The notes: generated by a model from the letters alone, not told the origin. A DNA stretch of 64,000 bases from Elusimicrobia bacterium HGW-Elusimicrobia-1 (GCA_002841695.1 PHAN01000002.1:90807-154806), one strand, 5' to 3'; numbered from the stretch's first letter, positions 32,645 through 50,630 are shown. A program made the numbers and translations.

Positions 32645-35083
32645 TCAGCGCGCAACGAGTATCATCGCCGATCCTGCCGGGATGTCCACGGACAACTTCG
32701 ATTTTTTTACTTTCATTAAGCGTGAGGGCTTTGCGACCCTGATTTTTTTTACGACGCGTCCGCCGTCGGCGCCGGGGGCGTCGAAGAGTTCGTAGCGCTT
32801 CTCGCCGAGGATGTCGAAGTACTCCGTTCCGTCGGGCGCGCCCGCGTCGAACGTGACGGCGCGGGAGGCGGCGGAATTGTTGACCGCGACAAAAATCCTG
32901 TCCGCGCCTCTTCTCCTGGCAAAGACGATAATTTCATTTTCGTCGTCGGCGAGCACACTCTCGTAAACGCCGGTATGGAGTTCCTCGCGCGTGTTATGTA
33001 TCGCGGAGAGTTTCCTGTAGTGCTCGTAAATATCGCGCATAAATATTTTATCTTTATCGTCGAACGCAAGGTCTTTCCATACCATAGGCTCGCGGCAGAA
33101 CGGGTCGTCCGAACTCCACATCCCGGCTTCGGAGCCGTACCATATCATCGGCGCACCGGGCAGCGCAAACTGCACAGCCGTCACTTTTTTGAGTTTTTCG
33201 TAGACGTCTTTCGACGGCCGCCCCTGCTTGTACGACGGGTTATAGTCGCCGGTGTCCGACGGATTGAGGCGGTTACCCTTGTCGTAGTGGCGCCCCGGAT
33301 TAGAAAGCATCGAGACGGCGCGGTCGGTGTCGTGGCTGTCGAAGAGATTCTGCTGGACGAAGTTGACCTGATAAGGATAAAGCGCCAAAAGCCGTTTTAT
33401 CTCCGAATCAAACTTCGAGGGCTTTATCCAGCCGTTGGAGAGCCAGTTGAGCGTCGTCTTGATAAAAGGATAGTTCATCTGCGCGTGAAAAAGTTCGGGT
33501 TTCAGCCATTCGGGGGATTCGTCCCATAATTCGCCCGAGATATAGGCGTCGGGGTTGATGGACTTGACAAGCCGCGACCACTCGACCCAGAAAGGCATCT
33601 TGACATTCTCGGGAACGTCTAATCGCCAGCCGTCTATACCGTCGGAAGGATCGCCGTCGCCGTTGGGATCCATCCAGCGGCGGGTGATGTCGAAGATGTG
33701 TTTTTTTGGGCCGGCGACGAGACCGTTTTCGTCTTCCCTGAATTCCGGCAGCCCGCCGAATCCCGCCCAACCCTCGTAGCCGCGGCCAGTGTGCGCTTCG
33801 CGCATGAATAATTCCCAGTCGGTGACACTGAACCAGTCGGCGTATTTCGATTTCCTGCCTTTTTTCTTGACGTCGTTAAATGCCCAGAAGTTATCGCCCG
33901 AGTGATTGAATACTCCGTCGATGATGACGCGAAAGCCCATCGCCTTGGCTTTTTTAAGAAAATCCAGAAAGAGCATGTCGGTCTTTGTCCATTTCCACGT
34001 GGCGGGATCATCCGTCTCGCCCCTGAGTTCGGCGATGTCGCCCTTGAATCCGAGATTGTCGTCTATGTGGCGATAATCCGAGGTGTTGTATTTGTGGTGC
34101 GATTCGGCTTTGAATACCGGCGTAAGATACAGCGCGGTCACGCCCATTTCTTTGAGATAATCAAGTTTTTCGACGAGTCCCTGAATGTCTCCGCCGAAGC
34201 GCCGTCCCCAGACGAAATCGTAGAAGCCGCCCTGCTCCGAGGGATGTTTCCTGGAAAAATCCCATGTCCACGGAAGCGAGCCGTCGGGATTGTTCGCGGG
34301 GTCGCCATCGCGGAAGCGCTCGGGCATTACCTGATACCAGACCGCGCCTTTCGCCCAATCGGGCGTCGCGAACTTTATTTTTGTCGAGGCAGTGAAAACC
34401 GTCCCGGCGGAGGGGTAAATTATCTTGGTGTTTCCGTCGGCCAGGGCAAACGAATATTTGAGATTTTGCGCGTCGCGGGGAATCTCGGCGAAAGCGCTCC
34501 AGTAGTCGAAGCCGAGATAGGTCTTTGTTTTTTCCATCGCAAAACGTTTGCCGCCGCCCGAGACGACTTCGGCGTTTTCGACGTCTCCGGCGAGCGCGCG
34601 AAGTTTTATCTCGGCAAGACCCTTCGTTATTACGTTAAAATATTCTATCTTGCGAGGATCGTGGCGCAGCGCCGCCACCGCGATGTTGTTGAGAATAGGC
34701 GCCCCGTATGACGTTCCCGTCTCACCGACGGCAATGCCCGAATTGAAACCTCCGAAGCCGTCTTCCTTTTTTAGGGCCGCGTCGGCCTTGGGGTCCTCCA
34801 TCCAGCGGTCGCCGTTGACGACGAGTTTGTATAAGTGGAGGCCTTCTTTGAGTTCGAGCTTCGCCTCGAATTTCCCGTCGGGCCGCCGGCGCATCAGGTC
34901 TTTTGAGGAATTCCATTGGTTAAACGATCCGACTACCGCCACGGAATTTACCGCCTCTCCGGGCCGGGGTTCATATAGAAAAGAGATTTTCTGCGTCGGC
35001 GCAATCACCGCCGACAGAGCCGTCGTCATCAACAGCGCGACGGAGAAAACCGCCGCGAAGAAACATTTTTTCGATGAAAACAT
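32645..35083 (-). CDS. Secreted GH13 alpha-amylase/neopullulanase-like enzyme with N-terminal CBM48-like domain
   Basis: Signal peptide MFSSKKCFFAAVFSVALLMTTALSA; CBM48 VAVVGSFNQWNSS...LHLYKLVVNGDRW; GH13 regions VIIDGVFNHSGD, GWRLDVPENV, YISGELWD, FDSHDTDR. Confidence 0.85.
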   Translation of the reverse strand: MFSSKKCFFAAVFSVALLMTTALSAVIAPTQKISFLYEPRPGEAVNSVAVVGSFNQWNSSKDLMRRRPDGKFEAKLELKEGLHLYKLVVNGDRWMEDPKADAALKKEDGFGGFNSGIAVGETGTSYGAPILNNIAVAALRHDPRKIEYFNVITKGLAEIKLRALAGDVENAEVVSGGGKRFAMEKTKTYLGFDYWSAFAEIPRDAQNLKYSFALADGNTKIIYPSAGTVFTASTKIKFATPDWAKGAVWYQVMPERFRDGDPANNPDGSLPWTWDFSRKHPSEQGGFYDFVWGRRFGGDIQGLVEKLDYLKEMGVTALYLTPVFKAESHHKYNTSDYRHIDDNLGFKGDIAELRGETDDPATWKWTKTDMLFLDFLKKAKAMGFRVIIDGVFNHSGDNFWAFNDVKKKGRKSKYADWFSVTDWELFMREAHTGRGYEGWAGFGGLPEFREDENGLVAGPKKHIFDITRRWMDPNGDGDPSDGIDGWRLDVPENVKMPFWVEWSRLVKSINPDAYISGELWDESPEWLKPELFHAQMNYPFIKTTLNWLSNGWIKPSKFDSEIKRLLALYPYQVNFVQQNLFDSHDTDRAVSMLSNPGRHYDKGNRLNPSDTGDYNPSYKQGRPSKDVYEKLKKVTAVQFALPGAPMIWYGSEAGMWSSDDPFCREPMVWKDLAFDDKDKIFMRDIYEHYRKLSAIHNTREELHTGVYESVLADDENEIIVFARRRGADRIFVAVNNSAASRAVTFDAGAPDGTEYFDILGEKRYELFDAPGADGGRVVKKIRVAKPSRLMKVKKSKLSVDIPAGSAMILVAR

Positions 35084-35226
35084 TGTGCCTCCATTACGTC
35101 ACAGAGAGATGGATGAAAAGGCGGCATCGTTCAATTCCGCCGCGAAGCCATTATACAAAAATGACCCTCGCAGGCAAAAATCGGTAAAACGTTTTAACAC
35201 AGGCGGTATCCGCCGTCCGCGCAATT

Positions 35227-35255
35227 TTTGGAAAGCGCCTTTTCATTATGTATAA
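35227..35255 (+). promoter_or_regulatory. Near-consensus sigma70-type promoter (TTGGAA-N17-TATAAT) upstream of the ABC ATPase gene
   Basis: ttggaa at 35227-35232, tataat at 35250-35255, 17-nt spacer, ~34 nt upstream of ATG 35289. Confidence 0.45.
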
Positions 35256-35288
35256 TTCGGCTGACAACCTTGGATAACCGGAGGAAAT

Positions 35289-36392
35289 ATGGCTCAAGTC
35301 ATCATCAAAAATGTCTGGAAAAAATACGGGGACGCCGAAATCGTAAAAAATTTCAATCTTACGATAGCGGACAAGGAATTCTGCATTCTCGTGGGCCCGT
35401 CGGGCTGCGGCAAAACGACCACGCTTCGCATGATAGCCGGACTCGAAGATATTTCATCCGGAGAGATCCTCATCGGGGACGTTGTCGTCAACGGTGTGCC
35501 TCCGAAGGACAGAGACATCGCCATGGTCTTCCAGAACTACGCGCTCTATCCGCATATGAATGTGCGCGACAACATGGCCTTCGGACTGAAGCTGCGGGGT
35601 TATTCAAAAAAACTCATCGACGAGCGTGTCAACGAAGCCGCCGACATTCTCAACATAAAACATCTCCTGGCCAGAAAACCCAAGGATCTCTCGGGCGGTC
35701 AGCGTCAGCGCGTTGCAGTGGGACGGGCCATCGTCAGAAAACCTAAGGTCTTTCTTTTCGACGAACCGCTCTCCAACCTTGACGCCAAACTCCGCGCCCA
35801 GATGCGCGCGGAACTCAAAAAACTCCACCAGCGACTTCAGGCGACGATGATATACGTCACGCACGACCAGATCGAGGCCATGACGATGGGCGATAAAATC
35901 TGCGTGATGAAAGACGGCGTGATACTGCAGGTCGACGAGCCGATTAAACTTTATTCGGATCCGGTCGACAAGTTCGTGGCCGGCTTTATCGGCTCCCCGC
36001 CGATGAACTTTTTCGATTGCAAGGTGGCCGCGAAGGATGACGCGGTGTGGATATCCGAGGGTAGTTTCGATATTAAACTCTCCGCTAAATTCACCGCCGC
36101 GCTTAAAAATCTCGACGGTAAAATGGTTACGGCCGGCATCCGCCCCGAAGATATTCACGACAAACTCTTCTATCGCATAGGCCCCATGGACGGCAATATC
36201 TTCACCGCTACGGTGGACGTCATAGAGCCGCTCGGCGCCGAGATTTATCTGCATATGAACACCGGGAAAAACTCTTTCGTCGCAAAGGTTGATTCGCACA
36301 ACACCGCTAAGCCCAACCAGATTCTCGAACTCGTCGTCAATGTCGATAAAATAAAGATTTTCGACAAGGAAACCGAAACGGCGCTGGCTTGA
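35289..36392 (+). CDS. Sugar ABC transporter ATP-binding protein (MalK/MsmX/UgpC type with C-terminal regulatory domain)
   Basis: Walker A GPSGCGKTT, ABC signature LSGGQRQRVAVGRA, Walker B VFLFDEPLSNLD, H-loop YVTHDQ. Confidence 0.9.
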   Translation: MAQVIIKNVWKKYGDAEIVKNFNLTIADKEFCILVGPSGCGKTTTLRMIAGLEDISSGEILIGDVVVNGVPPKDRDIAMVFQNYALYPHMNVRDNMAFGLKLRGYSKKLIDERVNEAADILNIKHLLARKPKDLSGGQRQRVAVGRAIVRKPKVFLFDEPLSNLDAKLRAQMRAELKKLHQRLQATMIYVTHDQIEAMTMGDKICVMKDGVILQVDEPIKLYSDPVDKFVAGFIGSPPMNFFDCKVAAKDDAVWISEGSFDIKLSAKFTAALKNLDGKMVTAGIRPEDIHDKLFYRIGPMDGNIFTATVDVIEPLGAEIYLHMNTGKNSFVAKVDSHNTAKPNQILELVVNVDKIKIFDKETETALA

Positions 36393-36465
36393 AAGCGGAG
36401 GTAAATGATAAATGGTGAATGGTGAAAAGGATAATGTCTCACTAAATAATGTGCGCTCCGTAAAG

Positions 36466-36545
36466 GTAGTGTAGCCCTTTATGGGCGTTTCTTTATGGGC
36501 GTTTCTTTATGGGCGTTTATTGACGGGGACAAGCCCCTACACTAC
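36466..36545. repeat. REP-family palindrome plus 3 tandem copies of ctttatgggcgttt
   Basis: gtagtgtagccctttatgggcgtttctttatgggcgtttctttatgggcgtttattgacggggacaagcccctacactac. Confidence 0.7.
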
Positions 36546-36572
36546 ACCAAAATAGGAAGTAAGAGGCAAAAT

Positions 36573-38960
36573 ATGAACCCAAAAACAAAAACATTTTTGG
36601 CGGCTGCTTTTTTTTGTGTATCGACGATATCCGGTTTATTCCCGCCGCCCGCGCACGCGCGAGGGCTTGAAACGCCCGTCATCGACGTCGAGGCGGGTTC
36701 CGTCGTCGAGATGCCGCTTGATTTGTTCGTCGGCGCGCCCGTCGCGTCGGGGCCGGCGGTTACCAATATATCCGGCGCGAAGTCCGTCCGCGTTTCCGTC
36801 GCGCCAAAAAGATCCGCCCTCGTCATTTCGGCGCCGGCGGGTTTTTCGGGCTTCGACGCTTTCGTCGTCTCGGCTTCCTCCGACGGCAAAACGACTTTTT
36901 CGCGCGCCGTGGCGGTGAGGGTGACAGCGCCGCGCCGGACTGTTTTGCGCTATAAACCGGCAAAATCCGTCAAATCCGTCGCCGCGGCGGGGGACTTTAA
37001 TTCGTGGAATCCTTCCGCCTCGCCCATGACGGGGCCCGACAAGAAAGGTTTCTACTCCATTGAGCTTAAACTCGCCGCCGGAGAGTACAATTATAAGTTC
37101 GTCGTCGACGGACAATGGCTCGCCGACACGGCCAACCCCGCATCCGTCCCCGACGGCTTCGGCGGAACGAACTCCGTTGTTTTCGTAGGCGCGCCGCCTA
37201 AGTCCGGCCGATGGCACAGCGTTGTCGTCGACGATACAACCGCGCGCGTCGCGTATATCGCCGGCAAAGCCGCGCCGTCTTTCGACGCCGCATCGCTGTT
37301 GCTCGTCTCCGGCGATAAAATCCTCGCCCGCGGAGGCGACTATTCCGTTGATGAAACGCGCGGCGAAATAGCGATTAAACTCGCATCCCTCGGTTCGCCG
37401 CCCGCCGACGTCATGATATTGGCCCGCGATAAATCGGGTGCGATACTGAGCGGCTTCGTCGCCCGCTTTCCGTCGGACGACGGATGGAACGGGCGGCTGA
37501 TGTACTTCGCCTTCACCGACAGATTTCACAGCGGCTCGGCCGCCAATGACCGGCCATCCGGCGACCCTGACGTTGCGCCGGCGGCGGATTTTCGCGGTGG
37601 CGATTTTGCCGGCATCACAGAAAAACTCCGCGACGGCTATTTTGAGCGGCTCGGCGTGGGAGCGCTGTGGATATCGCCTCACTTTAAGAATCCCGACCGG
37701 CCATATATCGACGCTCTTCCTCCGCATAGAAAGTTTACCGGCTATCACGGCTACTGGCCGGTTTCTTTCGACGAGACCGACCCGAGATTCGGGACTATTG
37801 AAGAACTCCGCGAACTCGTGGCCGCGGCCCATAAGCGCGGCATCAAAGTCATTCTCGATATGGTGTTAAACCACGCCCACGAGGAAAATCCCGTCTACAA
37901 GAAAAATCCCGGATGGTTTTCAAAAATTACTCTGGCCGACGGCCGCAAAAATATCCGTCTTTTCGACGAGCGTCCGCTCGACACGTGGTTCGACGACTTC
38001 CTGCCCGACTTTGCCTACGAAGGTAATCCCGCCGCCGTCGAATATATGGTCTCAAACTGCCTCGATTGGATCAAGAAAACAAACTGCGACGGCTTCCGCC
38101 TCGACGCCGTCAAGCACGTGCCTATGGTATTCTGGACGGAACTCCGCCGCCGCATCCGCCGCGACATCGAAATCCCGCGCGGAGAAATGTTTTACCTCGT
38201 AGGAGAAACCATCTCCGGACGCGAAAAAATAATGGAATACGTCGGCTTTGATAAACTCGACGGACAGTTTGATTTTCCGATATACTGGGCGATAAAAGAC
38301 GTCTTCGCCTGGCAAACTAAAGGTCTCGACTATCTCGAACGCGAGAGCGGGAAATCAGCTTTGCAGTACGTCGGATCCATTCCGAGCCCGCTTTTGGGCA
38401 ATCACGACTTTGCCCGTTTCAGCGCTTTCGCCGACGGCGCGATACCTCCCGGTTCCAACGAAAAAGCGCGCTCGTGGGACAATCGCCCCGAAGTCAAAAA
38501 CCGCTCTACCTATCAAAAACTCCGTATGGCTTTCGCTTTTCTTCTCTCTGAGCCGGGCGTTCCCATGATTTATTACGGCGACGAAATAGGCCTCTCGGGC
38601 GCGGGCGACCCCGACAACCGCCGAATGATGAAGTTCGACAAACTCTCAGGCGACGAGCGCGAAACCCTCCAATATGTCGGCGCGCTGGCCGCGTTCCGCC
38701 GTGCCTCCAAGGCGCTCCGTTTTGGCGAGCGCCACACGCTTGTGTCGTCGGAAAACACCCTCGTTTACCTCAAAAATTATTTCGGCGAAACTGCCGTCGT
38801 TGCAATCAACCGTTCGCCCCGCCCCGCCGAAGTCAGCGTTGAACTTCCGCCGTTTTTCAAAAACCCCGCGTCCTTTGAAGACGTAGTAAGCGGCAAAAAA
38901 ATCCAACTCAAAAAGTTGCGCATCCCCCCGATGAGCGCCGTCGTCCTTCGCGGCATCTGA
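36573..38960 (+). CDS. Secreted GH13 alpha-amylase-family enzyme with CBM48-like domain
   Basis: Start at ATG 36573 (after SD aggaagtaagagg) preferred over track start 36495; signal peptide MNPKTKTFLAAAFFCVSTISG; CBM48 AAAGDFNSWNP...GEYNYKFVVDGQW; GH13 regions VILDMVLNHAHE, GFRLDAVKHVP, FYLVGETISG, LGNHDFARF. Confidence 0.85.
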   Translation: MNPKTKTFLAAAFFCVSTISGLFPPPAHARGLETPVIDVEAGSVVEMPLDLFVGAPVASGPAVTNISGAKSVRVSVAPKRSALVISAPAGFSGFDAFVVSASSDGKTTFSRAVAVRVTAPRRTVLRYKPAKSVKSVAAAGDFNSWNPSASPMTGPDKKGFYSIELKLAAGEYNYKFVVDGQWLADTANPASVPDGFGGTNSVVFVGAPPKSGRWHSVVVDDTTARVAYIAGKAAPSFDAASLLLVSGDKILARGGDYSVDETRGEIAIKLASLGSPPADVMILARDKSGAILSGFVARFPSDDGWNGRLMYFAFTDRFHSGSAANDRPSGDPDVAPAADFRGGDFAGITEKLRDGYFERLGVGALWISPHFKNPDRPYIDALPPHRKFTGYHGYWPVSFDETDPRFGTIEELRELVAAAHKRGIKVILDMVLNHAHEENPVYKKNPGWFSKITLADGRKNIRLFDERPLDTWFDDFLPDFAYEGNPAAVEYMVSNCLDWIKKTNCDGFRLDAVKHVPMVFWTELRRRIRRDIEIPRGEMFYLVGETISGREKIMEYVGFDKLDGQFDFPIYWAIKDVFAWQTKGLDYLERESGKSALQYVGSIPSPLLGNHDFARFSAFADGAIPPGSNEKARSWDNRPEVKNRSTYQKLRMAFAFLLSEPGVPMIYYGDEIGLSGAGDPDNRRMMKFDKLSGDERETLQYVGALAAFRRASKALRFGERHTLVSSENTLVYLKNYFGETAVVAINRSPRPAEVSVELPPFFKNPASFEDVVSGKKIQLKKLRIPPMSAVVLRGI

Positions 38961-38984: not shown

Positions 38985-39092
38985 ATTGTTATTGCGAGCC
39001 CCGAAGGGGCGTGGCAATCTCCCTATACGCGAGATTGTTTTGTCAGTAGGGACAGGTCGCGACCTGTCCCTACAAAATCCTCGCAATGACAA
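38985..39092. terminator. Nested palindromic structure downstream of GH13 gene, including a perfect 28-bp palindrome
   Basis: cattgttattgcgag ... gtagggacaggtcgcgacctgtccctac ... ctcgcaatgacaacaatg. Confidence 0.45.
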
Positions 39093-39230
39093 CAATGCTC
39101 TCGCCCGCCGTTTTTCGTCGCCCCCTATCCCACAAAAACCTTGACTTTTCGCCGCGAATCTGCTATAAATACCGTATTAAACGCGAAGTGTGATGTTCGA
39201 TTGATGTTTTGCTGCGATATGTGTAGCGGC

Positions 39231-39288
39231 GGGATTGCTATCCCGCAATTATGGCGCATAGCAATGCGCCCGCTACATAATCATACAT
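39231..39288. repeat. Palindromic intergenic element P6
   Basis: tgtagcggcgggattgctatcccgcaa...ggcgcatagcaatgcgcccgctaca. Confidence 0.7.
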
Positions 39289-39321: not shown

Positions 39322-39924
39322 ATGTCAAGAAAACTCCTTAAAATTTCCGAAGCCGCCAAACTTGTAGGCGTCCTTCCATCCACAATCCGTTACTACACCG
39401 ATATCGGACTTTTGAAGTCAAGCGACGAAACCAAAGGGGGGCACCGCCTCTACGACCCCGACGACGTCGCCGCGATCGTAAACAAGATAAAGTTTCTCTC
39501 GGCCCGCGGACTCACTATGGATGCCATAAAAAAAGAACTCGCCGCCGGCAGAAAATCCAAAAAAATACTGGTGATAGACGACGAACCGGAGGTGGGAAAT
39601 CTCGTCAGGGATGTCGCCGCCGAGAAGTTCCCCGACGCCGAAGTCAAAATCGTCTACGACGGGTTCACCGCCGGCCGCGCGCTGTCGGATTATCTGCCGG
39701 ATTTAATAGTGCTCGACTTGATGCTTCCGGGGATAAACGGTTTTGAGGTCTGCAAGCAGATTCGCGCAAGCAAGTTTATGAACGGCGTAAAGATTCTGGC
39801 CGTAACGGGTTATGATACGACGGAAAACAAAGAACGCATAATGAAATCGGGCGCCGACGATTATCTGGCCAAACCTCTTGAGGTGGCGGCTCTGGCGGCC
39901 AAGATTAAGAAGATGATATTGTGA
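39322..39924 (+). CDS. Response regulator with N-terminal MerR-type HTH domain fused to a CheY-like receiver domain
   Basis: LLKISEAAKLVGVLPSTIRYYTDIGLL (MerR HTH); receiver KILVIDDEPEV...DLIVLDLMLPGINGFEV...KILAVTGYD...GADDYLAKP. Confidence 0.8.
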   Translation: MSRKLLKISEAAKLVGVLPSTIRYYTDIGLLKSSDETKGGHRLYDPDDVAAIVNKIKFLSARGLTMDAIKKELAAGRKSKKILVIDDEPEVGNLVRDVAAEKFPDAEVKIVYDGFTAGRALSDYLPDLIVLDLMLPGINGFEVCKQIRASKFMNGVKILAVTGYDTTENKERIMKSGADDYLAKPLEVAALAAKIKKMIL

Positions 39925-39947
39925 TTTTTTTAAGACGTATCCGTAAG

Positions 39948-40027
39948 AAATACCTCCCCCTTTGGAAAAGGAGGATTGAGGGGGAAATCGGCCTCCCCCT
40001 TTTTAAAGGGGGAAAGAGGGGGATTTT
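39948..40027. repeat. P1 palindromic element
   Basis: aaatacctcccccttttggaaaaggaggattgagggggaaatcggcctccccctttttaaagggggaaagagggggatttt. Confidence 0.7.
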
Positions 40028-40033
40028 AATTTT

Positions 40034-40383
40034 ATGATTTTGCCATACAGTCCCAAGTTAAAATCATATTCAAGAGAATTAAGAAAGAATATGACGGATG
40101 CCGAGAAAAAAATATGGGGAAAACTCCGACGGAAGCAATTAAAGAAATGTCAATTTTACAGACAAAGAGTGATAGGTGAATATATAGTGGATTTTTTTGT
40201 TCCTCCGCCAAATTGGTCATCGAAATCGATGGCGGCCAACACTATACGAAAGATGGTATGGGCAGAGATAAGATCCGTGATGATTACATTAAAAATCTCG
40301 GTGTCAAGATATTAAGATTTACGGACAGAGAAGTTTTACAAAATATTGATTTAGTGGTTGGGCAAATATATGAAAATTTGTAA
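40034..40383 (+). pseudogene. DUF559-family endonuclease-like gene disrupted by a frameshift in a T7 homopolymer (or a homopolymer sequencing error)
   Basis: N-terminal LRKNMTDAEKKIWGKLRRKQL...FYRQRVIGEYIVDFF in frame 1; shifting +1 after the T run gives CSSAKLVIEIDGGQHY...GVKILRFTDREVLQNIDLVVGQIYENL ending at 40383; AT-rich. Confidence 0.7.
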
Positions 40384-40462
40384 AAATCCCCCTGTGTCCC
40401 CCTTTAAAAAAGGGGGATTAAGACATTTCGTCGAGCTCCCCTTTTAAAAAGGGGGAATAGAA
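40383..40462. repeat. P1 palindromic element
   Basis: aaaaatccccctgtgtccccctttaaaaaagggggattaag...gctccccttttaaaaagggggaat. Confidence 0.7.
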
Positions 40463-40564
40463 AGCCGCACCCCAAAGATTCTTGTGATTAACGACGAGAC
40501 GGAAGCACGGAAGATTAAGAAGATATTATTCTGATAGGAACGAACAGTCGGTAACTTTGGGTTA

Positions 40565-43500
40565 ATGATGGTTAAACGGATTTTTGCCGCTATCGGAGTT
40601 TGGTTTTTTTTGACGCTTTGCGTTCTGCGCCCCGCCTTTGCCACAACCAATAATACGATAACCATAGACGCCGCCCTCGCCGACTGGCAAAGCAATGAGG
40701 CGCTCGGCACTTCTTTCGGGCAATTTTATTTCACATGGGATGCGAGCAATTTTTATTTTGCTTATAATCGCGGCGGAACTTTTACCGCTGACCCGGATGT
40801 TGTCTGGATTTATATCAGCACAGTAGCGCCAACATCTACCGCCGGAACTTTTACTTCGGTTGATTGGACTGGCACCCATACACTTCCCTTCCGTGCAGGA
40901 TACGTCTATTTATTCAGGCCCAATGCCGAGTATAAAACCTACAGAAATTGGACCGGCTCGGCTTGGTCGGGAGATTGGGCGGGGAGCGCAACTACAAGCC
41001 AGAATTATGGCAGTGGTATAGTAGAGATAAAAATACCCAGAGCAGATATCGGCAACCCTTCTTCAATCAGGGTTACCATGTATATCACTAACGGGTCAAA
41101 TAACTATGTTTTTGGAACTACCCCGAGGGAAAATCCCAATGGCGCGACGGGAAGGTTGATGGGTTTGTCTTGGTATTATCCTAATTGCTCATCCACGGGA
41201 GTGTTCCCGAATTTAATTAGGTACAGATATCCGGGGGTTGTTATTGCTGATGTGTCGCCAAATGCAGGCGCGGCCGGGAATGATTATGTCACACTGTATA
41301 ATCCAAATGACGAGGCATTATATTTAAGTAACCTGCAATCGCATCATGGTTTGCCGACCGGATTAGTGTTGCGCTTTAGAACATATAACGGAGCAACGGG
41401 AACAAATAAAACACTGACTGTGGTTTCTACAAATACGATCTCCTCGCGAGGATTTTCGTTACTCGCATCCGGGACACCGCCGAAAACCGCCGATATAACT
41501 TTTGCTGCTGGGCTGGATACCTCAGATGACGGGGTGGTGATAGCGTATTCCAATACGACAACATTTGGCACCGACACATGGACATTGACCGATCTTTTTG
41601 GATGGGGGGGGCAAACAGTCGCCCTTGAAGGTAGCGCTCCCGCCAATCCTGGCACCGCCGATAGTTTTCAAAGAAAAGCATGGTCAACAACCGCAAGTTC
41701 CGCATCCATGCGTCTTGATGGCGAGGACACATACGCGGGGCATTTCATGGATACACACAACAACTCAAGCGATTTTGTGACCCTGATAAGTTCGTACATT
41801 TCAAATAATAGTTCGGATCCCCGCGAAGGATTCCTCGGCCAGTGCTGGCACATACCGGACAACACCTCCGATTTGGGCGGCATATCAATGCGCAACCCCC
41901 TGACGTATATTTATTTAAACACGCCCACAACTTTTTATGTAGGCAATTATTTTCAAGGAACCGGAAACCCGGGCGATATGTCGGGCGGGACGCTTTATTA
42001 TAAGGCAAAAACGGAACCATCATGGAGTTCCGTTTCTTTTGCCTATGATTCAACATCCGGCAACAATAAATACTGGCGTGCTCTCCTGAATAATTCTTAT
42101 ACAGCGGGGACAACCGTTCAATATTATATCAGCGTAGCATACGCGGACAGCCACGACACCACTCTTCTGTATTACAGCGGCGGACAAAGCAGAAGATGTT
42201 ACGAAACATACATTGCCACGAATACGCCTTCCGAGTTTATTGTTCAGGCGGACGCCGCGCCGGATCCCATAACGCCTACGCTGTCGCGGGCAGATGAGAT
42301 GGGAGCGAAAATTTACGTTACATGGGCAGCCCAGGGCGGGATGGACGGCTACAAAATCTATCGCTCATCCGTATCCGCGATAACGAACGGCAATAGGGGC
42401 GACGCAAGCCACCCCCTCGACGGAACGGCTACGCCGAGCGCCGCGGAATCGTACACTACGTCCGCCCTATTGCCCAATACCACTTACTGGTTCGCCGTAT
42501 GCGCCTATAAAGACGCCGTCGAGGGCGACGTCGGTTCGGCGGTTGCCATACGCACCGCCAGAATCTCGATAGACGGTTCCGCCTCCGACTGGGCGACCTC
42601 CGTGGAGTCGCCGTGGGTCAATGAATCAACGACCACGCTTGCATCCGGCTCCGGCACAGTTCCTTATTACGAATGGTCGTGGCGCGACAAGGCGTGGGAG
42701 CAAAGAACCGATTCCGCTCAGGACGACCGCAATTTCGACCTCAGGAATTTCCGCGTAGCCGCCGACGAGGAATACATTTATTTTTATACGAAATACGACA
42801 ACATCACCGATAAGGATTTTTATCATTTTGCGGTCGCCATAGACACGGGCGGCGCGACGGGATTAAATTGGCTCGGCGACGATTCCAACTCCGACACGAA
42901 CGGCGGCACCGCTATGGGCCTCGGCGGCGAATACGTCGGGGCGCTCAAAGCGGCGGCCATACTGGCTTTCCGCTACATTTCCACAGCCGGCACGGATTTC
43001 AGGATACATATGTACAAAAACGGCGGTTCCGGATGGGACACGCCCGCGCTCACCGGAGCCGGAAACACTGCCTGCTGGCTTACCACCGGCGACGGCGGAT
43101 GGATGGAAGCCAAAGTCCGCCGCTCCGACATAGGCGCCGCCGGAATCAAAACCCTGAAATTCTCCGCCGCGGTTTTCGAGAATCTGTTGGGACTCATAGG
43201 CGACGTGGACTCGACCAAATACTACGCCCCCGACGCACTCGACGCGATGTCCATAGCGCGTATTTCCGCCGCTTCGACCTACAACGATTCGCAGTGGGGT
43301 ATGAACTCCTGGGACGAGGACATATCCGATTCCGACGCGGATTTCTGGGCGCAGGCGCAGATAGACGCCTCGGGCCTCAAAATTAACCAACCTCCATCCG
43401 CGCCGTCTCTTTCGCTTCCCGCCGATGGCGCGGGTGTCGATATATCCACGCCGGCTTTTTCGTGGAGCGACAACGGCGACCCCGATTCTGGCGACGCAGT

Positions 43501-46500
43501 GACTTCGTATATGATAGAGATTTCCACCTCGGCGAATTTTCCGACGCTGGTGCAATGTCGGGTCAACGTCGCGGGGACTTCGTGGACGGTGCCGCAGGGG
43601 GTTTTGGATCAGGGGCAGTACTACTGGCGCGTCAAAGCGCGCGACCGTGGCGGGGCGGCTTCCGTGTCGTCGGCGTCGCGCTCTTTCATCGTGGACACCT
43701 CTCCGCCGGACAAAATCACGAATCTCTCCGCGCTGCCGGGCGATTCCTCCAGTCGGATAAACCTTTCATGGACCGCGCCAGGCGACGACGGCTCCGTCGG
43801 CAATATCACCGGCGGCAAATACCGCGTCAAATGGTCTACATCCGCGGTTTCCGACTGGGACTCGGGGACTTGGACGGACTACGTCAACAAATATTCTCTT
43901 GAGTTCTCCACCGACGCGACTCCGTCGCACACCCACGGGCTGACAATTACCGGCCTGACGGCGGGCGCGTCGTGCCTGCCGTCAGGCGCGACGTATTATT
44001 TCAGAATGTGGACGCGTGACGAAAACGCCAACAACTGGTCGGATATTTCCGTCGGCGCGACGCAGTACTCTCCCGGGTCCCCCGTCGGGCACGCCCACGG
44101 CGACAGAGAAACATTCACGGCGCTGACTTCCGGAGGCGCATACGGCTCGGGAACAAATATCGTCTATGCCAAGACGACCGCCTGCGGCAGATTGTTTTTG
44201 ATACGCGGCGCGTCAAATTTATTTTATGAATACGACATACCCAACGACTTATGGAATTCCAAGGCGACACTTCCTGCCGCGGCCGGCACCGGTTCGGCTA
44301 TGGTCTGGGTCTCCACGGGCACGGAGGCCGGACAGTCGTGGCTTTACGCCATTCGCGGCGGCGCTCAAGACCATTTTTACCGTTATAACATAGCGGAGGA
44401 TTATTGGCAGACGATGGCCAATTTGCCCGATGCCGTCGCGGGCGGCGCGGCGATGGTGTGGACCGGCGGCGCCGATATATTCGTGTCCAGTCCCGCAGCC
44501 GGCGGGCCGTTCTGGCGATACAACATACCCAACAACAGGTGGAACAACGTTGCCGACGGAGGCGACCCCGCCGATTACGGCGTGGCCTTCGGATTGGGCG
44601 GCGGGCTTACATGGGACGGAACATACGTTTACGGCCTGCGCGGCGGCACTCTGAAGACGTTCAAAAGATATTCTCCGTCGGGAGACGCCTGGACCGACCT
44701 GACCGGCGCTCCGGAGAACGTCGGCGCGGGCGGCTCGCTGCTTTACACCGGCGGCAACTCTATTTACGCCATAAGAGGCGGAGGTAACACCGACCTTTGG
44801 CATTACGACATCGAGACGAGTTCTTGGGTAGTCCTTCCCAATCTTCCCTCCCCGGTAGGCACTAATACCGGCAATCGTCTGGCGTATCATTCCGACAACG
44901 GCGCTCTGGACCATCTTTATATCTGGCGCGGTGCGACGGCCAATGACTTGTGGTGTTTTCGGCGGGACATAACCGCCCCGTCGGCGATAGGCGATCTTAC
45001 GGCTTCCGTGGTGGACGGCTCCTGTGTCGCAATTCGTCTTGAATGGACGGCACCCTACGGCGACGGCACCGAAAACGGCCTCACGGAGACGTCGCAGTTC
45101 TGGATACAGTATTCGGATATGGACGTCGGCTGGAGCCGCGCAAACGCCCAGGTAAAAGTAACGGCCGGCCCAGTCGCCGCCGGCGCGCCCTGCGTTTACG
45201 ATATTAGCGTGCCGCATTGGGGGGTAAGTTACTATTTCAAAATATGGACGGGCGACAAGGTCAAAAACTGGTCTTCGTCATCAAACTCCGGCGGTCCCAT
45301 ATCGGTCACAACTACAAAAACGCTCTCCGGAAAAATCACTAACTCCGAAACAGGACAGCCCATTCAGGGAGTGGGCGTGGGACTGTCCGGTTTCAGGAAC
45401 GGCCGTACGTTTACCGACGCGGGGGGAAATTACTCGTTCACCGTGCCGGTCTGCCGACAGTACATCGTGATGCCGTCGAGCGCGGCTCTGCATTTTACCA
45501 CGGCCACGGCAAGCGGCATAGACTCTTCCTATCCCGACCGCTACGAGTTTTCCTCGTTCCCCAACGACCGCAGCGACCTCGACTTCGTGGGGCATCCGAC
45601 TTACGGCAACCTTTATTATTCCACGGACACCCTTACGACCACCGACATCGTCGGAACCACAAAGAAAATGTCGATAAGATTCACCGCGAACGACACCCGC
45701 CCGTACAACCGCGTCTACACCTATAATTCGACCGCCGCCGGCAATGATTCTTACGTGTTCGAGTTGCGCGGCGACGATGGCGATGGCTATCCCGGCATTC
45801 TTTTGTCTTCATCCACCGCGAATATATACAAAAACGACGGCTGGCATTACGCCACCGGCGCGTGGTCTCTCACAAAAGGAACCACATATCATATGGTGAT
45901 ATACTCCACTTACACCGCGGCAACCAACTATAGAATAAGAAAATCCGCGCCGCTTTCGTTCAACCGCCCCACAGACGCCGAGCCCGACTTCGCGGCAAAT
46001 GTTCTGGATTACGGCTTTGACGACAACCCTGATTTCTGGATGGTCAGGAACTTCACGCCCATCTACTACTTCCACTACGCCGCTCCGCCTTATTACCAGG
46101 AAGGCAATCCCTTCGGCGTAATCTCGTCGGGCGCGTACTATCAGGTGAAGGGTTCGACATGCATAGGCCAGATATTCACCATGGAAAAGTCGTCGGTATC
46201 GGCCAAGGCATTCCACTTCTGGGTAAAACGTTCCGCGGTACAGCCGGAAGACGGCCTTTACTGGTTTCTTCTGGGCCCGAATGACTCGTCCAATGTTTTG
46301 TCATCGGGACTTCTGGCCTCTCCTGAGGCCGTCGCCACCGAATTCAACTGGCACATTTCGGAGCAGATGGTGGAATGCCCGGCGCCGCTTTTGAAAGGAA
46401 GCACATACTGGATAATTCTTAAATCCACCGGCTCAACGTCGGGCTACTACGAGTTCGCCACCCTCAATCATGGAGCCACCGAAACTTACAGGGACGCCAT

Positions 46501-47803
46501 TACCTATCGCGGGGCTGACAGTACCCTTGTCGTCAACTACGGAACGACGTTTGACCCGCGTACCTCCCGCGATGCCATATTCCGCGTGCGTCACTCCACG
46601 GTGGTGACCGGCGGACCAAAAACAATTACGGATTTGGCCGCCGCGACTTCACAGGACGCCGAAGGCGCGGTAGACCTTGACTGGACGTACCCCGGAATTT
46701 GCGGTCACGTGGATTTGCCCATAGGCAGCCGCTACTACATACAGCATTCCACGCATCTGGACGCGCCGTTTAACTGGAATGTGGACAATGCTCAGACGGT
46801 AATCTCCACCGGACCGGTTCTTGTGGGGGAACATCAGTTCTACACCAAGATGTCCTTGGACGAAGGCAACACTTATTATTTCACCGTCTGGTACTGGCAT
46901 TCTGATTTTAACGTCACATCTCTTGCCTCCAACGTCGCGACGTCGTGGGCGTCTCTTATAGCGCCCGCGGCCGTAACGAACCTCACCGCGCTTCCCGCTT
47001 TGCGCGGACGTTCCATCGATCTGGCCTGGACGGCTCCCGGCGACAACGTAATGACCGGCGACATAACAGGCGGCGCGTACCGTCTGAAATATTCCACTTA
47101 TGTCGACGGAGGCGATTCGTTCTGGAACGGCGGCGACTGGACCGACCGCACTTATAAGTATGAGATGATATGGTCGACGGATACCTCGCCCGGTCAGGAT
47201 GAGGCGCTCAACATAACCGCGCTTTCGCCCGGCACGACTTATTATTTCCGGCTTTGGACCCGCGACCGCTTCGAAGACAACTGGTCGAACATTTCAAACG
47301 GGGCCACATCGTGGGCGCAGGTGGTAAATCTTTCCGTCTACGTTCTTGATTCGTCCACTTACAATTTCGGAGCCGTGCCCACTCAAATATCGACCGTGTC
47401 GCTGAACGGAATAATCGTCCGCAACGACGGCAACGTAAATGCGTCCTATTTGTTGCGCATCGCCACCGGCACAGTGCCTCCGGCCAACACTATCTGGGAT
47501 ACATCCACGACTATCGGCGCCAACAGATTCGTGTTAAAAACAATGTTCAAAAACGCCCAGCCGCTCGACGGAGATTTCGGCGCGGCCGCGGGAGACGACG
47601 TGCTCACGCTTGAAGATATTTACGCCACCGGTGTCAACTTTTCCGACGGCACTCACGAAGGCCGCTACATAGAGCCGTTTTTGGCGGCTCCGCTTTTGTC
47701 CGACACGACTTTATGGTTCCGTCTCTCCACGCCGCTTTCCACATCGACCACCGAATATCAGACCATACCGGTGGTAATTACAAGCGAGGAGACGTACCCG
47801 TAA
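40565..47803 (+). CDS. Giant (2412 aa) secreted multidomain surface protein: CBM9/DOMON-like N-terminal domain, FN3 domains, probable beta-propeller repeats
   Basis: Signal peptide MMVKRIFAAIGVWFFLTLCVLRPAFA; N-terminal TITIDAALADWQSNE...FYFTWDASNFYFAY; FN3 signatures TTYWFAVCAYKD, GQYYWRVKARDRGG, TYYFRMWTRDEN, TYYFRLWTRDRF; repeated LYAIRGG / YAIRGGG segments. Confidence 0.8.
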   Translation: MMVKRIFAAIGVWFFLTLCVLRPAFATTNNTITIDAALADWQSNEALGTSFGQFYFTWDASNFYFAYNRGGTFTADPDVVWIYISTVAPTSTAGTFTSVDWTGTHTLPFRAGYVYLFRPNAEYKTYRNWTGSAWSGDWAGSATTSQNYGSGIVEIKIPRADIGNPSSIRVTMYITNGSNNYVFGTTPRENPNGATGRLMGLSWYYPNCSSTGVFPNLIRYRYPGVVIADVSPNAGAAGNDYVTLYNPNDEALYLSNLQSHHGLPTGLVLRFRTYNGATGTNKTLTVVSTNTISSRGFSLLASGTPPKTADITFAAGLDTSDDGVVIAYSNTTTFGTDTWTLTDLFGWGGQTVALEGSAPANPGTADSFQRKAWSTTASSASMRLDGEDTYAGHFMDTHNNSSDFVTLISSYISNNSSDPREGFLGQCWHIPDNTSDLGGISMRNPLTYIYLNTPTTFYVGNYFQGTGNPGDMSGGTLYYKAKTEPSWSSVSFAYDSTSGNNKYWRALLNNSYTAGTTVQYYISVAYADSHDTTLLYYSGGQSRRCYETYIATNTPSEFIVQADAAPDPITPTLSRADEMGAKIYVTWAAQGGMDGYKIYRSSVSAITNGNRGDASHPLDGTATPSAAESYTTSALLPNTTYWFAVCAYKDAVEGDVGSAVAIRTARISIDGSASDWATSVESPWVNESTTTLASGSGTVPYYEWSWRDKAWEQRTDSAQDDRNFDLRNFRVAADEEYIYFYTKYDNITDKDFYHFAVAIDTGGATGLNWLGDDSNSDTNGGTAMGLGGEYVGALKAAAILAFRYISTAGTDFRIHMYKNGGSGWDTPALTGAGNTACWLTTGDGGWMEAKVRRSDIGAAGIKTLKFSAAVFENLLGLIGDVDSTKYYAPDALDAMSIARISAASTYNDSQWGMNSWDEDISDSDADFWAQAQIDASGLKINQPPSAPSLSLPADGAGVDISTPAFSWSDNGDPDSGDAVTSYMIEISTSANFPTLVQCRVNVAGTSWTVPQGVLDQGQYYWRVKARDRGGAASVSSASRSFIVDTSPPDKITNLSALPGDSSSRINLSWTAPGDDGSVGNITGGKYRVKWSTSAVSDWDSGTWTDYVNKYSLEFSTDATPSHTHGLTITGLTAGASCLPSGATYYFRMWTRDENANNWSDISVGATQYSPGSPVGHAHGDRETFTALTSGGAYGSGTNIVYAKTTACGRLFLIRGASNLFYEYDIPNDLWNSKATLPAAAGTGSAMVWVSTGTEAGQSWLYAIRGGAQDHFYRYNIAEDYWQTMANLPDAVAGGAAMVWTGGADIFVSSPAAGGPFWRYNIPNNRWNNVADGGDPADYGVAFGLGGGLTWDGTYVYGLRGGTLKTFKRYSPSGDAWTDLTGAPENVGAGGSLLYTGGNSIYAIRGGGNTDLWHYDIETSSWVVLPNLPSPVGTNTGNRLAYHSDNGALDHLYIWRGATANDLWCFRRDITAPSAIGDLTASVVDGSCVAIRLEWTAPYGDGTENGLTETSQFWIQYSDMDVGWSRANAQVKVTAGPVAAGAPCVYDISVPHWGVSYYFKIWTGDKVKNWSSSSNSGGPISVTTTKTLSGKITNSETGQPIQGVGVGLSGFRNGRTFTDAGGNYSFTVPVCRQYIVMPSSAALHFTTATASGIDSSYPDRYEFSSFPNDRSDLDFVGHPTYGNLYYSTDTLTTTDIVGTTKKMSIRFTANDTRPYNRVYTYNSTAAGNDSYVFELRGDDGDGYPGILLSSSTANIYKNDGWHYATGAWSLTKGTTYHMVIYSTYTAATNYRIRKSAPLSFNRPTDAEPDFAANVLDYGFDDNPDFWMVRNFTPIYYFHYAAPPYYQEGNPFGVISSGAYYQVKGSTCIGQIFTMEKSSVSAKAFHFWVKRSAVQPEDGLYWFLLGPNDSSNVLSSGLLASPEAVATEFNWHISEQMVECPAPLLKGSTYWIILKSTGSTSGYYEFATLNHGATETYRDAITYRGADSTLVVNYGTTFDPRTSRDAIFRVRHSTVVTGGPKTITDLAAATSQDAEGAVDLDWTYPGICGHVDLPIGSRYYIQHSTHLDAPFNWNVDNAQTVISTGPVLVGEHQFYTKMSLDEGNTYYFTVWYWHSDFNVTSLASNVATSWASLIAPAAVTNLTALPALRGRSIDLAWTAPGDNVMTGDITGGAYRLKYSTYVDGGDSFWNGGDWTDRTYKYEMIWSTDTSPGQDEALNITALSPGTTYYFRLWTRDRFEDNWSNISNGATSWAQVVNLSVYVLDSSTYNFGAVPTQISTVSLNGIIVRNDGNVNASYLLRIATGTVPPANTIWDTSTTIGANRFVLKTMFKNAQPLDGDFGAAAGDDVLTLEDIYATGVNFSDGTHEGRYIEPFLAAPLLSDTTLWFRLSTPLSTSTTEYQTIPVVITSEETYP

Positions 47804-47912: not shown

Positions 47913-47932
47913 ACTTTTGATTGGAGGAAAAA

Positions 47933-48883
47933 ATGAAAAAATTCTCATCGACAGGGTCATTGTTTATTCTCTTGTTTATCGTTTTTACTATCCACTACCC
48001 ACTAACCACTAACCACTGTCTTTACGCCGCCGGTCTCTCGTCTCCCAACGCCTCGATGTATCTGGGTAACCTTAAAATCGGCCAGACGTATTCACTCAGA
48101 CAACTGCTGGGCTACCCATTCAAAGCCACCTACAAAGGACGCTCAATGGCCGACCTGTCCATAAGCGTGATCGCGCTGTCCACCGCGACATCCGACGGAT
48201 ACGAACCCATCCCGTCCAACGACTGGATAGAAATCGAACGCTCGCATTTCTCTCTCGATCCGGGCCAGACCGCCGAAACCGACATCCTCATAAAAATCCC
48301 CGACGACACCGCGCATCTTGACAAAAAATATATCGTCATAATACAGCCACAGTCGGGCGCGCCGCGCGCCAGCGGAGCGGGCATTGTTTTCGGCACGGCG
48401 CTCAGGTGCCAGTTGCGCCTCGACATAGCCGCGCTTCCTCCCACGCCGGACGAAATCCGGCAGTTACGGCGCCTTCGGCACGGACAGTCGGTCGGTGTGG
48501 TTGTGTCTCCGGAAAGAATTTTCGTAAACGAAATCGAGGCGGGAAAAAAGATAGACGTCAAAAAAACTTTCGGCGATGTTATAAAAATAGTGAACTCGTC
48601 GGATTTCGACGTAGAGGCCGTCATAGAGTCCGCCGACCCCGCCAAGTTCGGGATGTTCGCCCCGTCGGGTTATGAAACCGCCCCCGATCACAAATGGCTT
48701 GTGCCCGCAAAAAGAAAAATCAAGATTCAGAAAAACCGCATAGCCGAGGCGCCGGTTACCATAAACATTCCTTCCGGCCCGGAACACGAGGGGAAAAGCT
48801 ACTATTTCGCCATTGCCGTAACCGTCAAATCGCCCATAAGAGAAGTCAATCATCTGGTCAGATTCTTTGTGGATATGAAGTAG
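47933..48883 (+). CDS. Secreted protein A1 of duplicated two-gene cassette (unknown function)
   Basis: ATG 47933 with GGAGGA 5 nt upstream (track start 47921 is TTG); leader SLFILLFIVFTIHYPLTTNHCLYAA; paralogous to 51140..52039 (NLKIG, GYEPxP, HLxKKY, ISAPSGY shared). Confidence 0.7.
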   Translation: MKKFSSTGSLFILLFIVFTIHYPLTTNHCLYAAGLSSPNASMYLGNLKIGQTYSLRQLLGYPFKATYKGRSMADLSISVIALSTATSDGYEPIPSNDWIEIERSHFSLDPGQTAETDILIKIPDDTAHLDKKYIVIIQPQSGAPRASGAGIVFGTALRCQLRLDIAALPPTPDEIRQLRRLRHGQSVGVVVSPERIFVNEIEAGKKIDVKKTFGDVIKIVNSSDFDVEAVIESADPAKFGMFAPSGYETAPDHKWLVPAKRKIKIQKNRIAEAPVTINIPSGPEHEGKSYYFAIAVTVKSPIREVNHLVRFFVDMK

Positions 48884-48925
48884 CAGTGGTTAGTGAAATA
48901 AAAAAAAGTGGTTAGTGGATAGTAA
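48884..48925. repeat. P2 arm copy
   Basis: gcagtggttagtgaaataaaaaaaagtggttagtggatagt. Confidence 0.6.
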
Positions 48926-48948
48926 AAATGAAAAAGGGGGGGAATAGT

Positions 48949-49326
48949 ATGATAGGAGTTAGGAGTTATAAAGATTTAATAATCTGGCGAAAAAGTATGG
49001 AACTTGTAAAAATTGTGTACAAAGCGACCAGTAGTTTCCCGCAAAAAGAATTATTCGGATTGACAAATCAGATGAGAAGGGCAGCCGTATCGATACCTTC
49101 AAATATAGCGGAAGGGCAGGCCAGAAACCATACGAAAGAATTTGTGCAGTTTCTGTATCAGGCGTTGGGCTCCCTGGCGGAACTTGATACACAGGCAATA
49201 ATAGCCAAGGAACTGGGTTATCTAAAAGCAGTGGATAGTGGTGAGTGGATAGAAAGACAAACTGCCGAACTTCAAAAGATGACACACGGCCTACTCAAAA
49301 AACTAACCGCTATAGACAGTGGATAG
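48949..49326 (+). CDS. Four-helix-bundle protein (family formerly called 23S rRNA intervening-sequence protein)
   Basis: SYKDLIIWRKSMELVKIVYK...FGLTNQMRRAAVSIPSNIAEGQAR...ELDTQAIIAKELGYL; AT-rich; start at ATG 48949 after GGGGGG SD preferred over 48928. Confidence 0.8.
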   Translation: MIGVRSYKDLIIWRKSMELVKIVYKATSSFPQKELFGLTNQMRRAAVSIPSNIAEGQARNHTKEFVQFLYQALGSLAELDTQAIIAKELGYLKAVDSGEWIERQTAELQKMTHGLLKKLTAIDSG

Positions 49327-49410
49327 TGGCGAGTGGTTAGTGGATAGAAAGGGCAGTGGTTAGTTTTTTGTTTTTACTATCCACTATTCACTAACCACTA
49401 ACCACTGCCC
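49318..49410. repeat. P2 hairpin, terminator-like
   Basis: gggcagtggttagttttttgtttttactatccactattcactaaccactaaccactgccc (13-bp perfect outer stem). Confidence 0.7.
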
Positions 49411-49668
49411 CTAAAAAACCCTTGACTTTATATAATTATTTTGCTATATACTGTATATCAAACAGGAAGCATACTTCTTAATTTAACATCTTGAATAAAA
49501 TGAGACGTGGGTTGGCCCGCCGAAGAAGGGCAGGAGGTGAAAAAAGGTCGTATGATTCAATCTTTAAAAAGCAATAGAGAAAAAGAGCTCGCGGCGTCGG
49601 TGGTGACGGAGTGCGCACCGTCATCCGTGACAGGCGCGGGCAAAAATCAAAAGGAAGAGGGAGGATTT

Positions 49669-50349: not shown

Positions 50350-50630
50350 AGATTAGTCACAGCAGTTTAAGGTCAGCGTAAGTTGGTCTTTGGTATCCCG
50401 CCGTAGTCCGGCGGGACTCCATAGGTTAACAAAATTACTCCCCGTAGAGGTAGACTTCCGTGTCCGCCATCATGGACGCGAATGTTTTCGGGTGTCATTT
50501 TCCCGAGACGTTTGCGACCCCGGAATTATCGGTGGCGCCGATGAAGTCGGCGCCCCATCTGTTTAAAGATTATTTTGCCGTCGCGGCTATGCGCCCGACG
50601 GCTTTTGTTTTTTATAGCCGAATAAACGAT

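Follow-up and report, generated by a model that had tools for sequence, protein, structure and literature searches.

Which genes are controlled by a response regulator that carries a MerR-type DNA-binding domain ahead of its receiver, and how could such a protein act on DNA? The question is raised by a gene at positions 39322-39924 of a 64,000-nucleotide (64-kb) stretch of DNA from Elusimicrobia bacterium HGW-Elusimicrobia-1, the whole of which is called the window below. The gene adjoins GH13/MalK genes for glucan utilisation on one side and genes for surface proteins on the other.

Domain architecture of the regulator

The open reading frame (39322-39924, + strand, ATG start) encodes 200 amino acids. 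Pfam profiles place a MerR-type winged helix-turn-helix (HTH) at residues 7-74 (39340-39543, +; MerR_1, 59.9 bits against a cutoff of 21.6, and MerR at residues 7-44, 51 bits against 28.2) and a receiver at residues 82-195 (39565-39906, +; Response_reg, 78.5 bits against 30.2). The HTH assignment is also in line with an AlphaFold model and with solved relatives, and that of the receiver with family-invariant columns and a match to PDB 3CNB. An earlier note on this DNA had described a MerR-like HTH, with the peptide KISEAAKLVGVLPSTIRYYTDIGLL (residues 7-31), ahead of a CheY-like receiver. The domain search that it had proposed bears this out, both domains scoring well above the curated cutoffs, and the N-terminal region, far from failing the HTH profiles, matched MerR_1 and MerR. 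Proteins of this build are called MerR-REC in the following.

The databases contain an identical entry, annotated as hypothetical, from Elusimicrobia bacterium HGW-Elusimicrobia-1. The best 120 database matches listed are all about 200-230 amino acids long and consist of a MerR HTH and a receiver; every taxon-named match among these 120 is from Elusimicrobia or Endomicrobiales. The identical deposit and the shared architecture indicate that the gene is real and conserved. The 81-aa N-domain alone as query gave 13 candidates, which say little about its spread. A profile search of contigs with the full-length alignment, which ran on generic receiver patterns, gave among the matches listed only ordinary response regulators and no family members.

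The receiver pocket is made up of the acidic pair D86/D87, the phospho-acceptor D132, T162, Y181 and K184-P185. D132 (codon GAC at 39715-39717) lies in the segment LIVLDLMLPG (residues 128-137), where the acceptor aspartate had been placed before, and it is invariant in an alignment of 26 family members, as are D86, D87, T162 and K184-P185, which makes the phosphorylation site complete. The b5 segment GADDY-x-KP is conserved in the family alignment, and the MerR DNA-contact motifs, namely R23/Y25 of the recognition helix and the GGHRLY wing, are invariant in the same 26 members. As part of the overall explanation developed below, it is reasonably probable that the protein is a phosphorylatable response regulator of a rare MerR-REC class.

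NCBIfam matched the receiver alone, with MtrA/PhoB/OmpR-type receivers nearest. Solved receivers superimpose on it with a TM score of 0.9, PDB 3CNB being the top match in both structure and sequence, and the OmpR/PhoB family (MtrA, PhoB, YycF, RpaA) is the one it resembles most in sequence and fold. Some sources label the protein as OmpR family. This is wrong, since no Trans_reg_C domain is matched by Pfam, the chain ending at receiver a5, whereas the DNA-binding domain is N-terminal and of the MerR type.

The HTH also scores 26.8 bits with HTH_17, against a cutoff of 27, and at JGI the relatives from Colwellia go under the name ‘excisionase family DNA binding protein’. Accordingly, one might consider an excisionase-like protein which steers a DNA rearrangement under phosphorylation control, for example phase variation of the giant surface-protein genes. 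The MerR_1 and MerR scores are far above that of HTH_17, and neither a recombinase nor invertible-segment repeats lie beside the gene at any examined locus; a function of this kind seems to us extremely improbable.

An AlphaFold2 model built on the 26-member alignment (pLDDT 88.9, pTM 0.78) gives an HTH with a1 at residues 8-15, a2 at 19-27 (the recognition helix, STIRYYTD), the wing at 35-44 (GGHRLY), a3 at 46-61 and a4 at 66-78. Helix a4 passes directly into receiver b1 (81-85), and the linker between HTH and receiver is 2-8 residues in every aligned member. No a5 helix or coiled-coil follows a4 in the model, and Pfam and the model give no effector pocket for metal, drug or redox signals, the receiver standing in its place. 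The protein thus shares the winged HTH, the R-Y-Y motif of the recognition helix and the GGHRLY wing with classical MerR proteins (MerR, CueR, BmrR, MtaN, TipAN), but lacks their a5 antiparallel coiled-coil and C-terminal effector pocket. In a profile search with the N-domain, the first solved relative was 3HH0 (E 8e-13), followed by MerR 4UA1, PbrR, MtaN and TipAN; GlnR/TnrA came next (GlnR 7TEC, E 2e-7), and BldC (6AMA/6AMK, E 0.04) was far weaker than the classical MerR proteins. GlnR/TnrA and BldC resemble MerR-REC in having a MerR-type HTH without coiled-coil, the DNA-binding oligomer being supplied or controlled otherwise (PMC5859096). They differ in that glutamine synthetase or head-to-tail self-association fulfils this role, whereas MerR-REC has a receiver in cis.

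The unusual layout that had drawn attention to the gene is indeed rare, but it was already catalogued. The PDB entry 3CNB, which was deposited in 2008, shows the receiver of a protein from Colwellia psychrerythraea annotated as ‘DNA-binding response regulator, merR family’. Used as a query, this receiver gave about 70 clusters from Alteromonadaceae, Colwellia among them; nearly all have 186-209 amino acids and carry HTH_17/MerR/MerR_1 with Response_reg. One Alteromonadaceae member is 34% identical to the window protein across both domains, and a 319-aa relative occurs in Candidatus Wallbacteria. The Alteromonadaceae proteins share the domain order, the length of about 190-200 amino acids, the very short linker and the family marks DGF/NPFDAG, GFxxC and TG; at a Colwellia locus (L115) genes for a sensor kinase and then for a stand-alone receiver come after that for MerR-REC. 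The differences are that Colwellia belongs to another phylum, that its kinase is of a cytoplasmic PAS type and not a HAMP type, and that it has no surface-protein cluster. With kinase cores 32% and stand-alone receivers 21% identical to those of the window, the parallel is architectural only. In the literature searched we found no functional study of any MerR-receiver protein, and the term ‘MerR family response regulator’ was applied there, in a loose sense, to metal sensors of the CadR type. The window protein is a phylum-specific addition to a class that is catalogued but uncharacterised.

The same MerR HTH subtype is also found as stand-alone proteins of 80-121 amino acids, or joined to a C-terminal part of about 150 amino acids which is unrelated to the receiver and has a predicted membrane segment (L088 7689-7967; L102 1899-2183; L111-L113; L100, L105, L106). 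The stand-alone gene of L088 lies directly upstream of the MerR-REC gene of that locus.

Neighbouring genes and the sensor kinase

About 35 loci with MerR-REC family members were examined for their neighbours. At roughly 25 loci the MerR-REC gene is always the first same-strand gene ahead of genes for surface or secreted proteins. The downstream neighbours are conserved, whereas the upstream genes are not: a GH13 gene is found only in the window and in a relative with 89% identity (L085), DksA-type zinc finger and polyamine genes in L086/L003, helicase-nuclease genes in L004/L087 and housekeeping genes in L001/L119.

These comparisons bear directly on the proposal of the earlier note that the protein, as an orphan regulator, may control the adjacent GH13/MalK glucan-utilisation genes. 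It is in favour of this that the genes adjoin one another in the window and in L085, but the adjacency is lost in all other relatives, and the regulator has a promoter of its own, placed after terminator-like palindromes. The promoter regions at 35084-35288 and 36400-36572, suggested as places to look for MerR-type operators, contain neither a dyad within a 19-20-bp spacer nor a copy of the conserved box described below, and the same holds for 35060-35300 and 36380-36600, where no box, MerR-type dyad or promoter with a 19-20-bp spacer was found. What these regions do contain are ordinary promoters with 16-17-bp spacers, and inverted repeats consisting of one 9-nt and one 7-nt pair, unlike the box. 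Since the GH13 adjacency is not conserved and the GH13/MalK promoters carry neither operator nor box, control of the glucan locus is unsupported, and we consider it very unlikely. Judged from the sequence comparisons, the regulator most likely controls the neighbouring genes for cell-surface proteins and not the adjoining starch-degrading genes.

Some further features of the region upstream of the regulator were observed. Three tandem copies of TTTCTTTATGGGCG at about 36470-36520, upstream of the GH13 gene, could bind a sugar-responsive regulator, and the true start of GH13 is probably the methionine of MNPKTKTF near 36570, not 36495. Between GH13 and the regulator promoter lies a nested palindromic element (38986-39095), in which the outer arms GTTATTGCGAG / CTCGCAATGAC enclose a perfect palindrome, GTAGGGACAGGTCGCGACCTGTCCCTAC, at 39046-39073. 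The element, part of which recurs in L085, has the appearance of a terminator or a repetitive extragenic element.

On the downstream side, the ortholog of the giant surface protein starts 23-37 nt past the regulator stop in L003, L086 and L085, giant proteins of 2385-2931 amino acids come after the regulator in L097, L099, L103 and L117, and a CHU_C-like gene and a PorP-like gene follow it directly in L104. In L119, whose regulator is 58% identical to that of the window, the order is regulator, proteins of 302, 221, 1021 (fn3, CHU_C), 564 (TraF_2-like) and 131 amino acids, a HAMP-HisKA-HATPase kinase and, with its start overlapping the stop of the kinase, a stand-alone receiver; unrelated genes come thereafter.

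The window has homologs of these genes in the same order, all on the + strand. The first is a BT_3987-like secreted protein of 320 amino acids (47921-48883; 52% identical to its L119 ortholog, which directly follows the regulator). It is followed by a small secreted protein with the probable start MKKLFFML... and thus about 226 amino acids (49507-50349; 41% to the 221-aa gene), which is the first gene after an internal promoter and has a paralog at 52179-52955. Then come a 1013-aa fn3-rich protein with a CHU_C-like C-terminal domain (53078-56119; CHU_C 25.6 bits, cutoff 27; 30% over 1069 aa) and a 601-aa candidate for a PorP/SprF/TraF-like outer-membrane barrel (56269-58074), which is 40% identical over 561 aa to the TraF_2-like protein of L119 and 34% identical to a protein of L088 with Pfam PorP_SprF. 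A relation of this 601-aa protein to a 588-aa coiled-coil protein of L001 was considered, and none was found. The series ends with a 121-aa protein akin to the C-terminal domain of the 1013-aa protein (58337-58702; 36% to the 131-aa protein), the kinase (59014-60459; 45% over 478 aa) and the stand-alone receiver (60456-60824; 39%). The gene-by-gene homology in the same order indicates that 39322-60824 of the window is an enlarged copy of one conserved unit. The unit is expanded here by a giant adhesin-like gene (40565-47803, +; 2412 amino acids with fn3, Ig-like, Kelch and LTD-like domains), which in close relatives has its orthologs immediately behind the regulator, as well as by a DUF559 remnant, a gene of the 23S-rRNA-IVS type and duplicated genes (50885, 52179). 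Within the same overall explanation, MerR-REC would with fair probability head a surface-protein cluster that is conserved in Elusimicrobia and closed by a HAMP kinase and a stand-alone receiver.

The regulator is followed in the window by a terminator-like hairpin with a T-run (39994-40023, +), which is part of an insertion at 39940-40560 before the giant gene. Together with the DUF559 remnant, it makes co-transcription of the regulator and the giant gene uncertain in the window. The remnant, inserted between two genes that are 23-37 nt apart in relatives, is a DUF559 endonuclease-like gene (40034-40383) split by a frameshift into two ORFs, which match positions 2-49 and 55-108 of the Pfam DUF559 profile. 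Hairpins of the form CCCCCTTT...AAAGGGGG lie on either side of it, at 39953-40023 and about 40390-40470. Another inserted gene, at 48928-49326, encodes a four-helix bundle of the 23S rRNA-intervening-sequence type (Pfam 23S_rRNA_IVP, E 1e-37); it is flanked by GTGGTTAGTGGATAG-like repeats and stands just upstream of the internal promoter. A gene of this type directly follows the regulator in L117.

Two features recur among the cluster proteins. A secreted family of about 200-230 amino acids, for which Pfam gave no match (49507-50349 and 52179-52955 in the window; L088 8623-11161; L119 11764-12429), occurs in one to four tandem copies per cluster and may provide subunits of a surface structure. 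The succession of a CHU_C-like fn3 protein, a PorP/SprF/TraF-like protein and a small relative of the C-terminal domain (53078-58702) is seen as a CHU_C-like/PorP-like gene arrangement also at L088 12160-16606, L119 12960-18177 and L104 717-2720. CHU_C is a type B C-terminal domain of type IX secretion, and the arrangement of cargo with PorP is known from Bacteroidota, whereas the present loci belong to Elusimicrobia. Downstream of the stand-alone receiver, at a distance of 30 nt, begins a second giant surface-protein gene (60854-64000; more than 1048 amino acids, DUF2341 and fn3), which extends past the end of the window.

No kinase adjoins the regulator, as had been pointed out. The gene at 59014-60459 (+), which encodes a transmembrane HAMP-HisKA-HATPase sensor kinase of 481 amino acids, is the sole histidine kinase in the 64-kb window, which has two receiver proteins. 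Its suggested role as partner gains support from the relatives, where orthologs stand directly beside MerR-REC in L001 (42%, full length) and L092 (35%), while in L119 the ortholog (45%) closes the compact cluster that MerR-REC opens. With the L119 cluster homologous, in the same order, to 47921-60824 of the window, this kinase is likely the partner of the regulator. Against this pairing stands the translational coupling of the kinase to another receiver, as a coupled receiver is by the usual rule the primary partner of its kinase. This stand-alone receiver (60456-60824, +; 122 amino acids), a gene that had been overlooked before, has an ATG which overlaps the kinase stop (ATGA), an arrangement also present in L119 and with an architectural parallel in the Colwellia locus. 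It is 37-38% identical to the receiver of MerR-REC, is likely a second phospho-acceptor, and may be a co-substrate or a phosphate sink.

Promoters and the conserved box

The regulator has a near-consensus promoter (39141-39169, +) with the -35 element TTGACT at 39141-39146, a 17-bp spacer and the extended -10 element TGcTATAAA (TG at 39161-39162, hexamer at 39164-39169), supported by conservation in orthologs; the automated promoter scan misses it, as the scan demands a T at hexamer position 6. A conserved box, TAAACGCGAAGTGTGATGTTCGATTGATG (39178-39206, +), begins 9 nt past the -10 element and occupies about +1 to +30, the predicted start site being near 39176-39180; it is a candidate operator. 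When the upstream regions of four orthologs were aligned, a block of about 80 bp was conserved between flanks that could not be aligned, and the block was also found in L001, L004, L087/L090 and L089. Its consensus is TTGACw, a 17-bp spacer ending in AATCTGC, a TAwAAA extended -10 element, 7-9 nt, and AAAC-nn-GAAGTRYGATGTTTAATT. The offset of the box is fixed in the window, L085, L086, L003, L001, L004, L087/L090 and L089. In members below about 55% identity the full box is not recognisable, the AAAC-n-GAAGT core alone being kept.

A second promoter of the same layout lies within the cluster (49422-49450, +; TTGACT at 49422-49427, 17-bp spacer, TGcTATATA with its hexamer at 49445-49450), and here the box recurs as CAAACAGGAAGCATACTTCTTAATTTAAC (49459-49487, +), upstream of the gene for the small secreted protein at 49507. 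The layout is shared by L091, at the equivalent place, and by L119. In leave-one-out scoring with a position weight matrix the internal box of the window reached 19.2 (18.1 on the reverse strand) and that of L091 18.7, while the highest score in 1.3 Mb of unrelated DNA, used as control, was 15.7; a site in L117 outside the training set scored 36.4. L119 carries its own variant of the box, GAGTAAGAAG / GAAGTAAGAAG, at both equivalent promoters, and the two sites therefore appear to change together within a genome. There was no match of the element in Rfam and there were no conserved RNA pairs in 10 aligned leaders, which indicates that the box is conserved as a linear sequence.

Several other readings of these sequences were tried and rejected. 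A structured 5' leader or riboswitch was dismissed on the same Rfam result and lack of conserved pairs in the 10 leaders. A leader mini-ORF (M-K-Y/C-D-V-stop) fails as the start codon is not conserved, being GCG in the window and L085 and CAA/AAG in L086/L087. Read by eye, AATCTGCTA does not have the spacings required of a sigma-54 or sigma-E promoter. The CTGCAGT..ACTGCAG palindromes upstream of the L100 and L105 paralogs are intrinsic terminators (stem and T-run) of the upstream gene and not operators. The regulator leader of the window also has a stable hairpin, TGTAGCGGCGGG...CGCCCGCTACA, at 39220-39280, and the whole leader folds with a z of -3.1; the hairpin is present in the window and, shortened, in L085 only, and absent from other orthologs.

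The symmetry of the box differs between sites. The internal copies are partly dyad-symmetric (GAAGyATACTTC; in the window GAAGCATACTTC), while dyad symmetry is not clear at the regulator's own promoter, which makes the latter a poor fit to a symmetric dimer. A stand-alone 94-aa MerR protein in L102, with the same recognition helix, has a perfect palindrome, AAAGTAAGC-A-GCTTACTTT, just past its -10 element, and a near-identical palindrome lies inside the L093 cluster. BldC is a MerR-like protein without coiled-coil which binds direct repeats as cooperative multimers (PMC5859096), and a comparable mode could be imagined here, in which HTHs line up head to tail on direct repeats while the receiver adjusts their cooperativity and no symmetric dimer is formed. 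The resemblance to BldC in the missing coiled-coil would fit, as would the repeats themselves: the window box has two copies of TGATGTT 11 nt apart, L093 has two GAAGT boxes 23 nt apart, and L119 has GAAGTAA/GAAGTTC in tandem. However, the sequence similarity to BldC is weak (E 0.04), and the internal boxes and the L102 and L093 sites are palindromic, so we regard this mode as rather unlikely.

It is also conceivable that the protein is a classical MerR-style activator which dimerises in some other way and distorts promoters with 19-20-bp spacers elsewhere, the box belonging to a different factor. The classical MerR N-domains are indeed the nearest relatives of its HTH (3HH0, E 8e-13; MerR 4UA1; PbrR; MtaN), and the promoter survey covered 64 kb of the genome. 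In the MerR arrangement the dyad lies inside a 19-20-bp spacer. No dyad operator in a spacer of this length is present at the regulator's own or the internal promoter within the 64-kb window; both conserved promoters have optimal 17-bp spacers of non-conserved sequence, and what is conserved lies downstream of the -10 element, outside the spacer. In both respects the MerR-REC-linked promoters differ from those of classical MerR proteins. The a5 coiled-coil needed for the dimer and for the twist mechanism is moreover absent. The 17-bp spacers, the box position and the missing coiled-coil together argue against MerR-style distortion of DNA, and we give this alternative a low probability, similar to that of the multimer mode. 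The box is a candidate operator to which we infer that the MerR-REC protein binds, although a factor other than MerR-REC could bind it.

Proposed mechanism and implications

Starting from the observed domains and catalytic residues, the missing coiled-coil of the model, the conserved cluster and the conserved box with its position, we favour, with some confidence, one explanation: a two-component MerR-REC switch of a surface-protein cluster that combines kinase pairing, receiver dimerisation and binding to the box. The membrane kinase (59014-60459) would sense an extracytoplasmic signal and phosphorylate D132 of its presumed partner MerR-REC. OmpR/PhoB receivers dimerise through a4-b5-a5 on phosphorylation, and the OmpR/PhoB-like receiver of MerR-REC would likewise dimerise, replace the coiled-coil interface of MerR proteins and thereby pair two HTHs. 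The dimer would then bind the AAAC-nn-GAAGT box at about +1 to +30 of the two strong sigma-70-type promoters, its own and that at 49422, and occupancy of the box would change transcription of the surface-protein genes, repression being the most plausible outcome. The stand-alone receiver (60456-60824) would compete for phosphate.

A bolder version may be put forward only tentatively, and we think it rather doubtful as a whole. MerR-REC could represent a mechanistically distinct class, in which a phospho-dimerised receiver turns a spacer-twisting MerR HTH into a +1-proximal repressor and, acting in Elusimicrobia jointly with a kinase of its own and a receiver that serves as phosphate sink, controls a surface module built like a type IX type-B cargo/PorP pair. 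To our knowledge, this phylum is not known for type IX secretion.

To the catalogued architecture our analysis adds a predicted partner kinase, a target cluster and candidate operator sites. The major concepts of two-component signalling are left unchanged by the model, but if it is true, it would provide the first functional handle on a class of response regulators which has been in the PDB since 2008 with no known targets, and it would show how a MerR-type head works without its hallmark coiled-coil. As the model names the kinase, the two promoter sites and the gene set, in vitro tests are possible without a culture of the organism. For the Elusimicrobia, it would identify the regulator of those giant surface proteins which are a prominent feature of their genomes.
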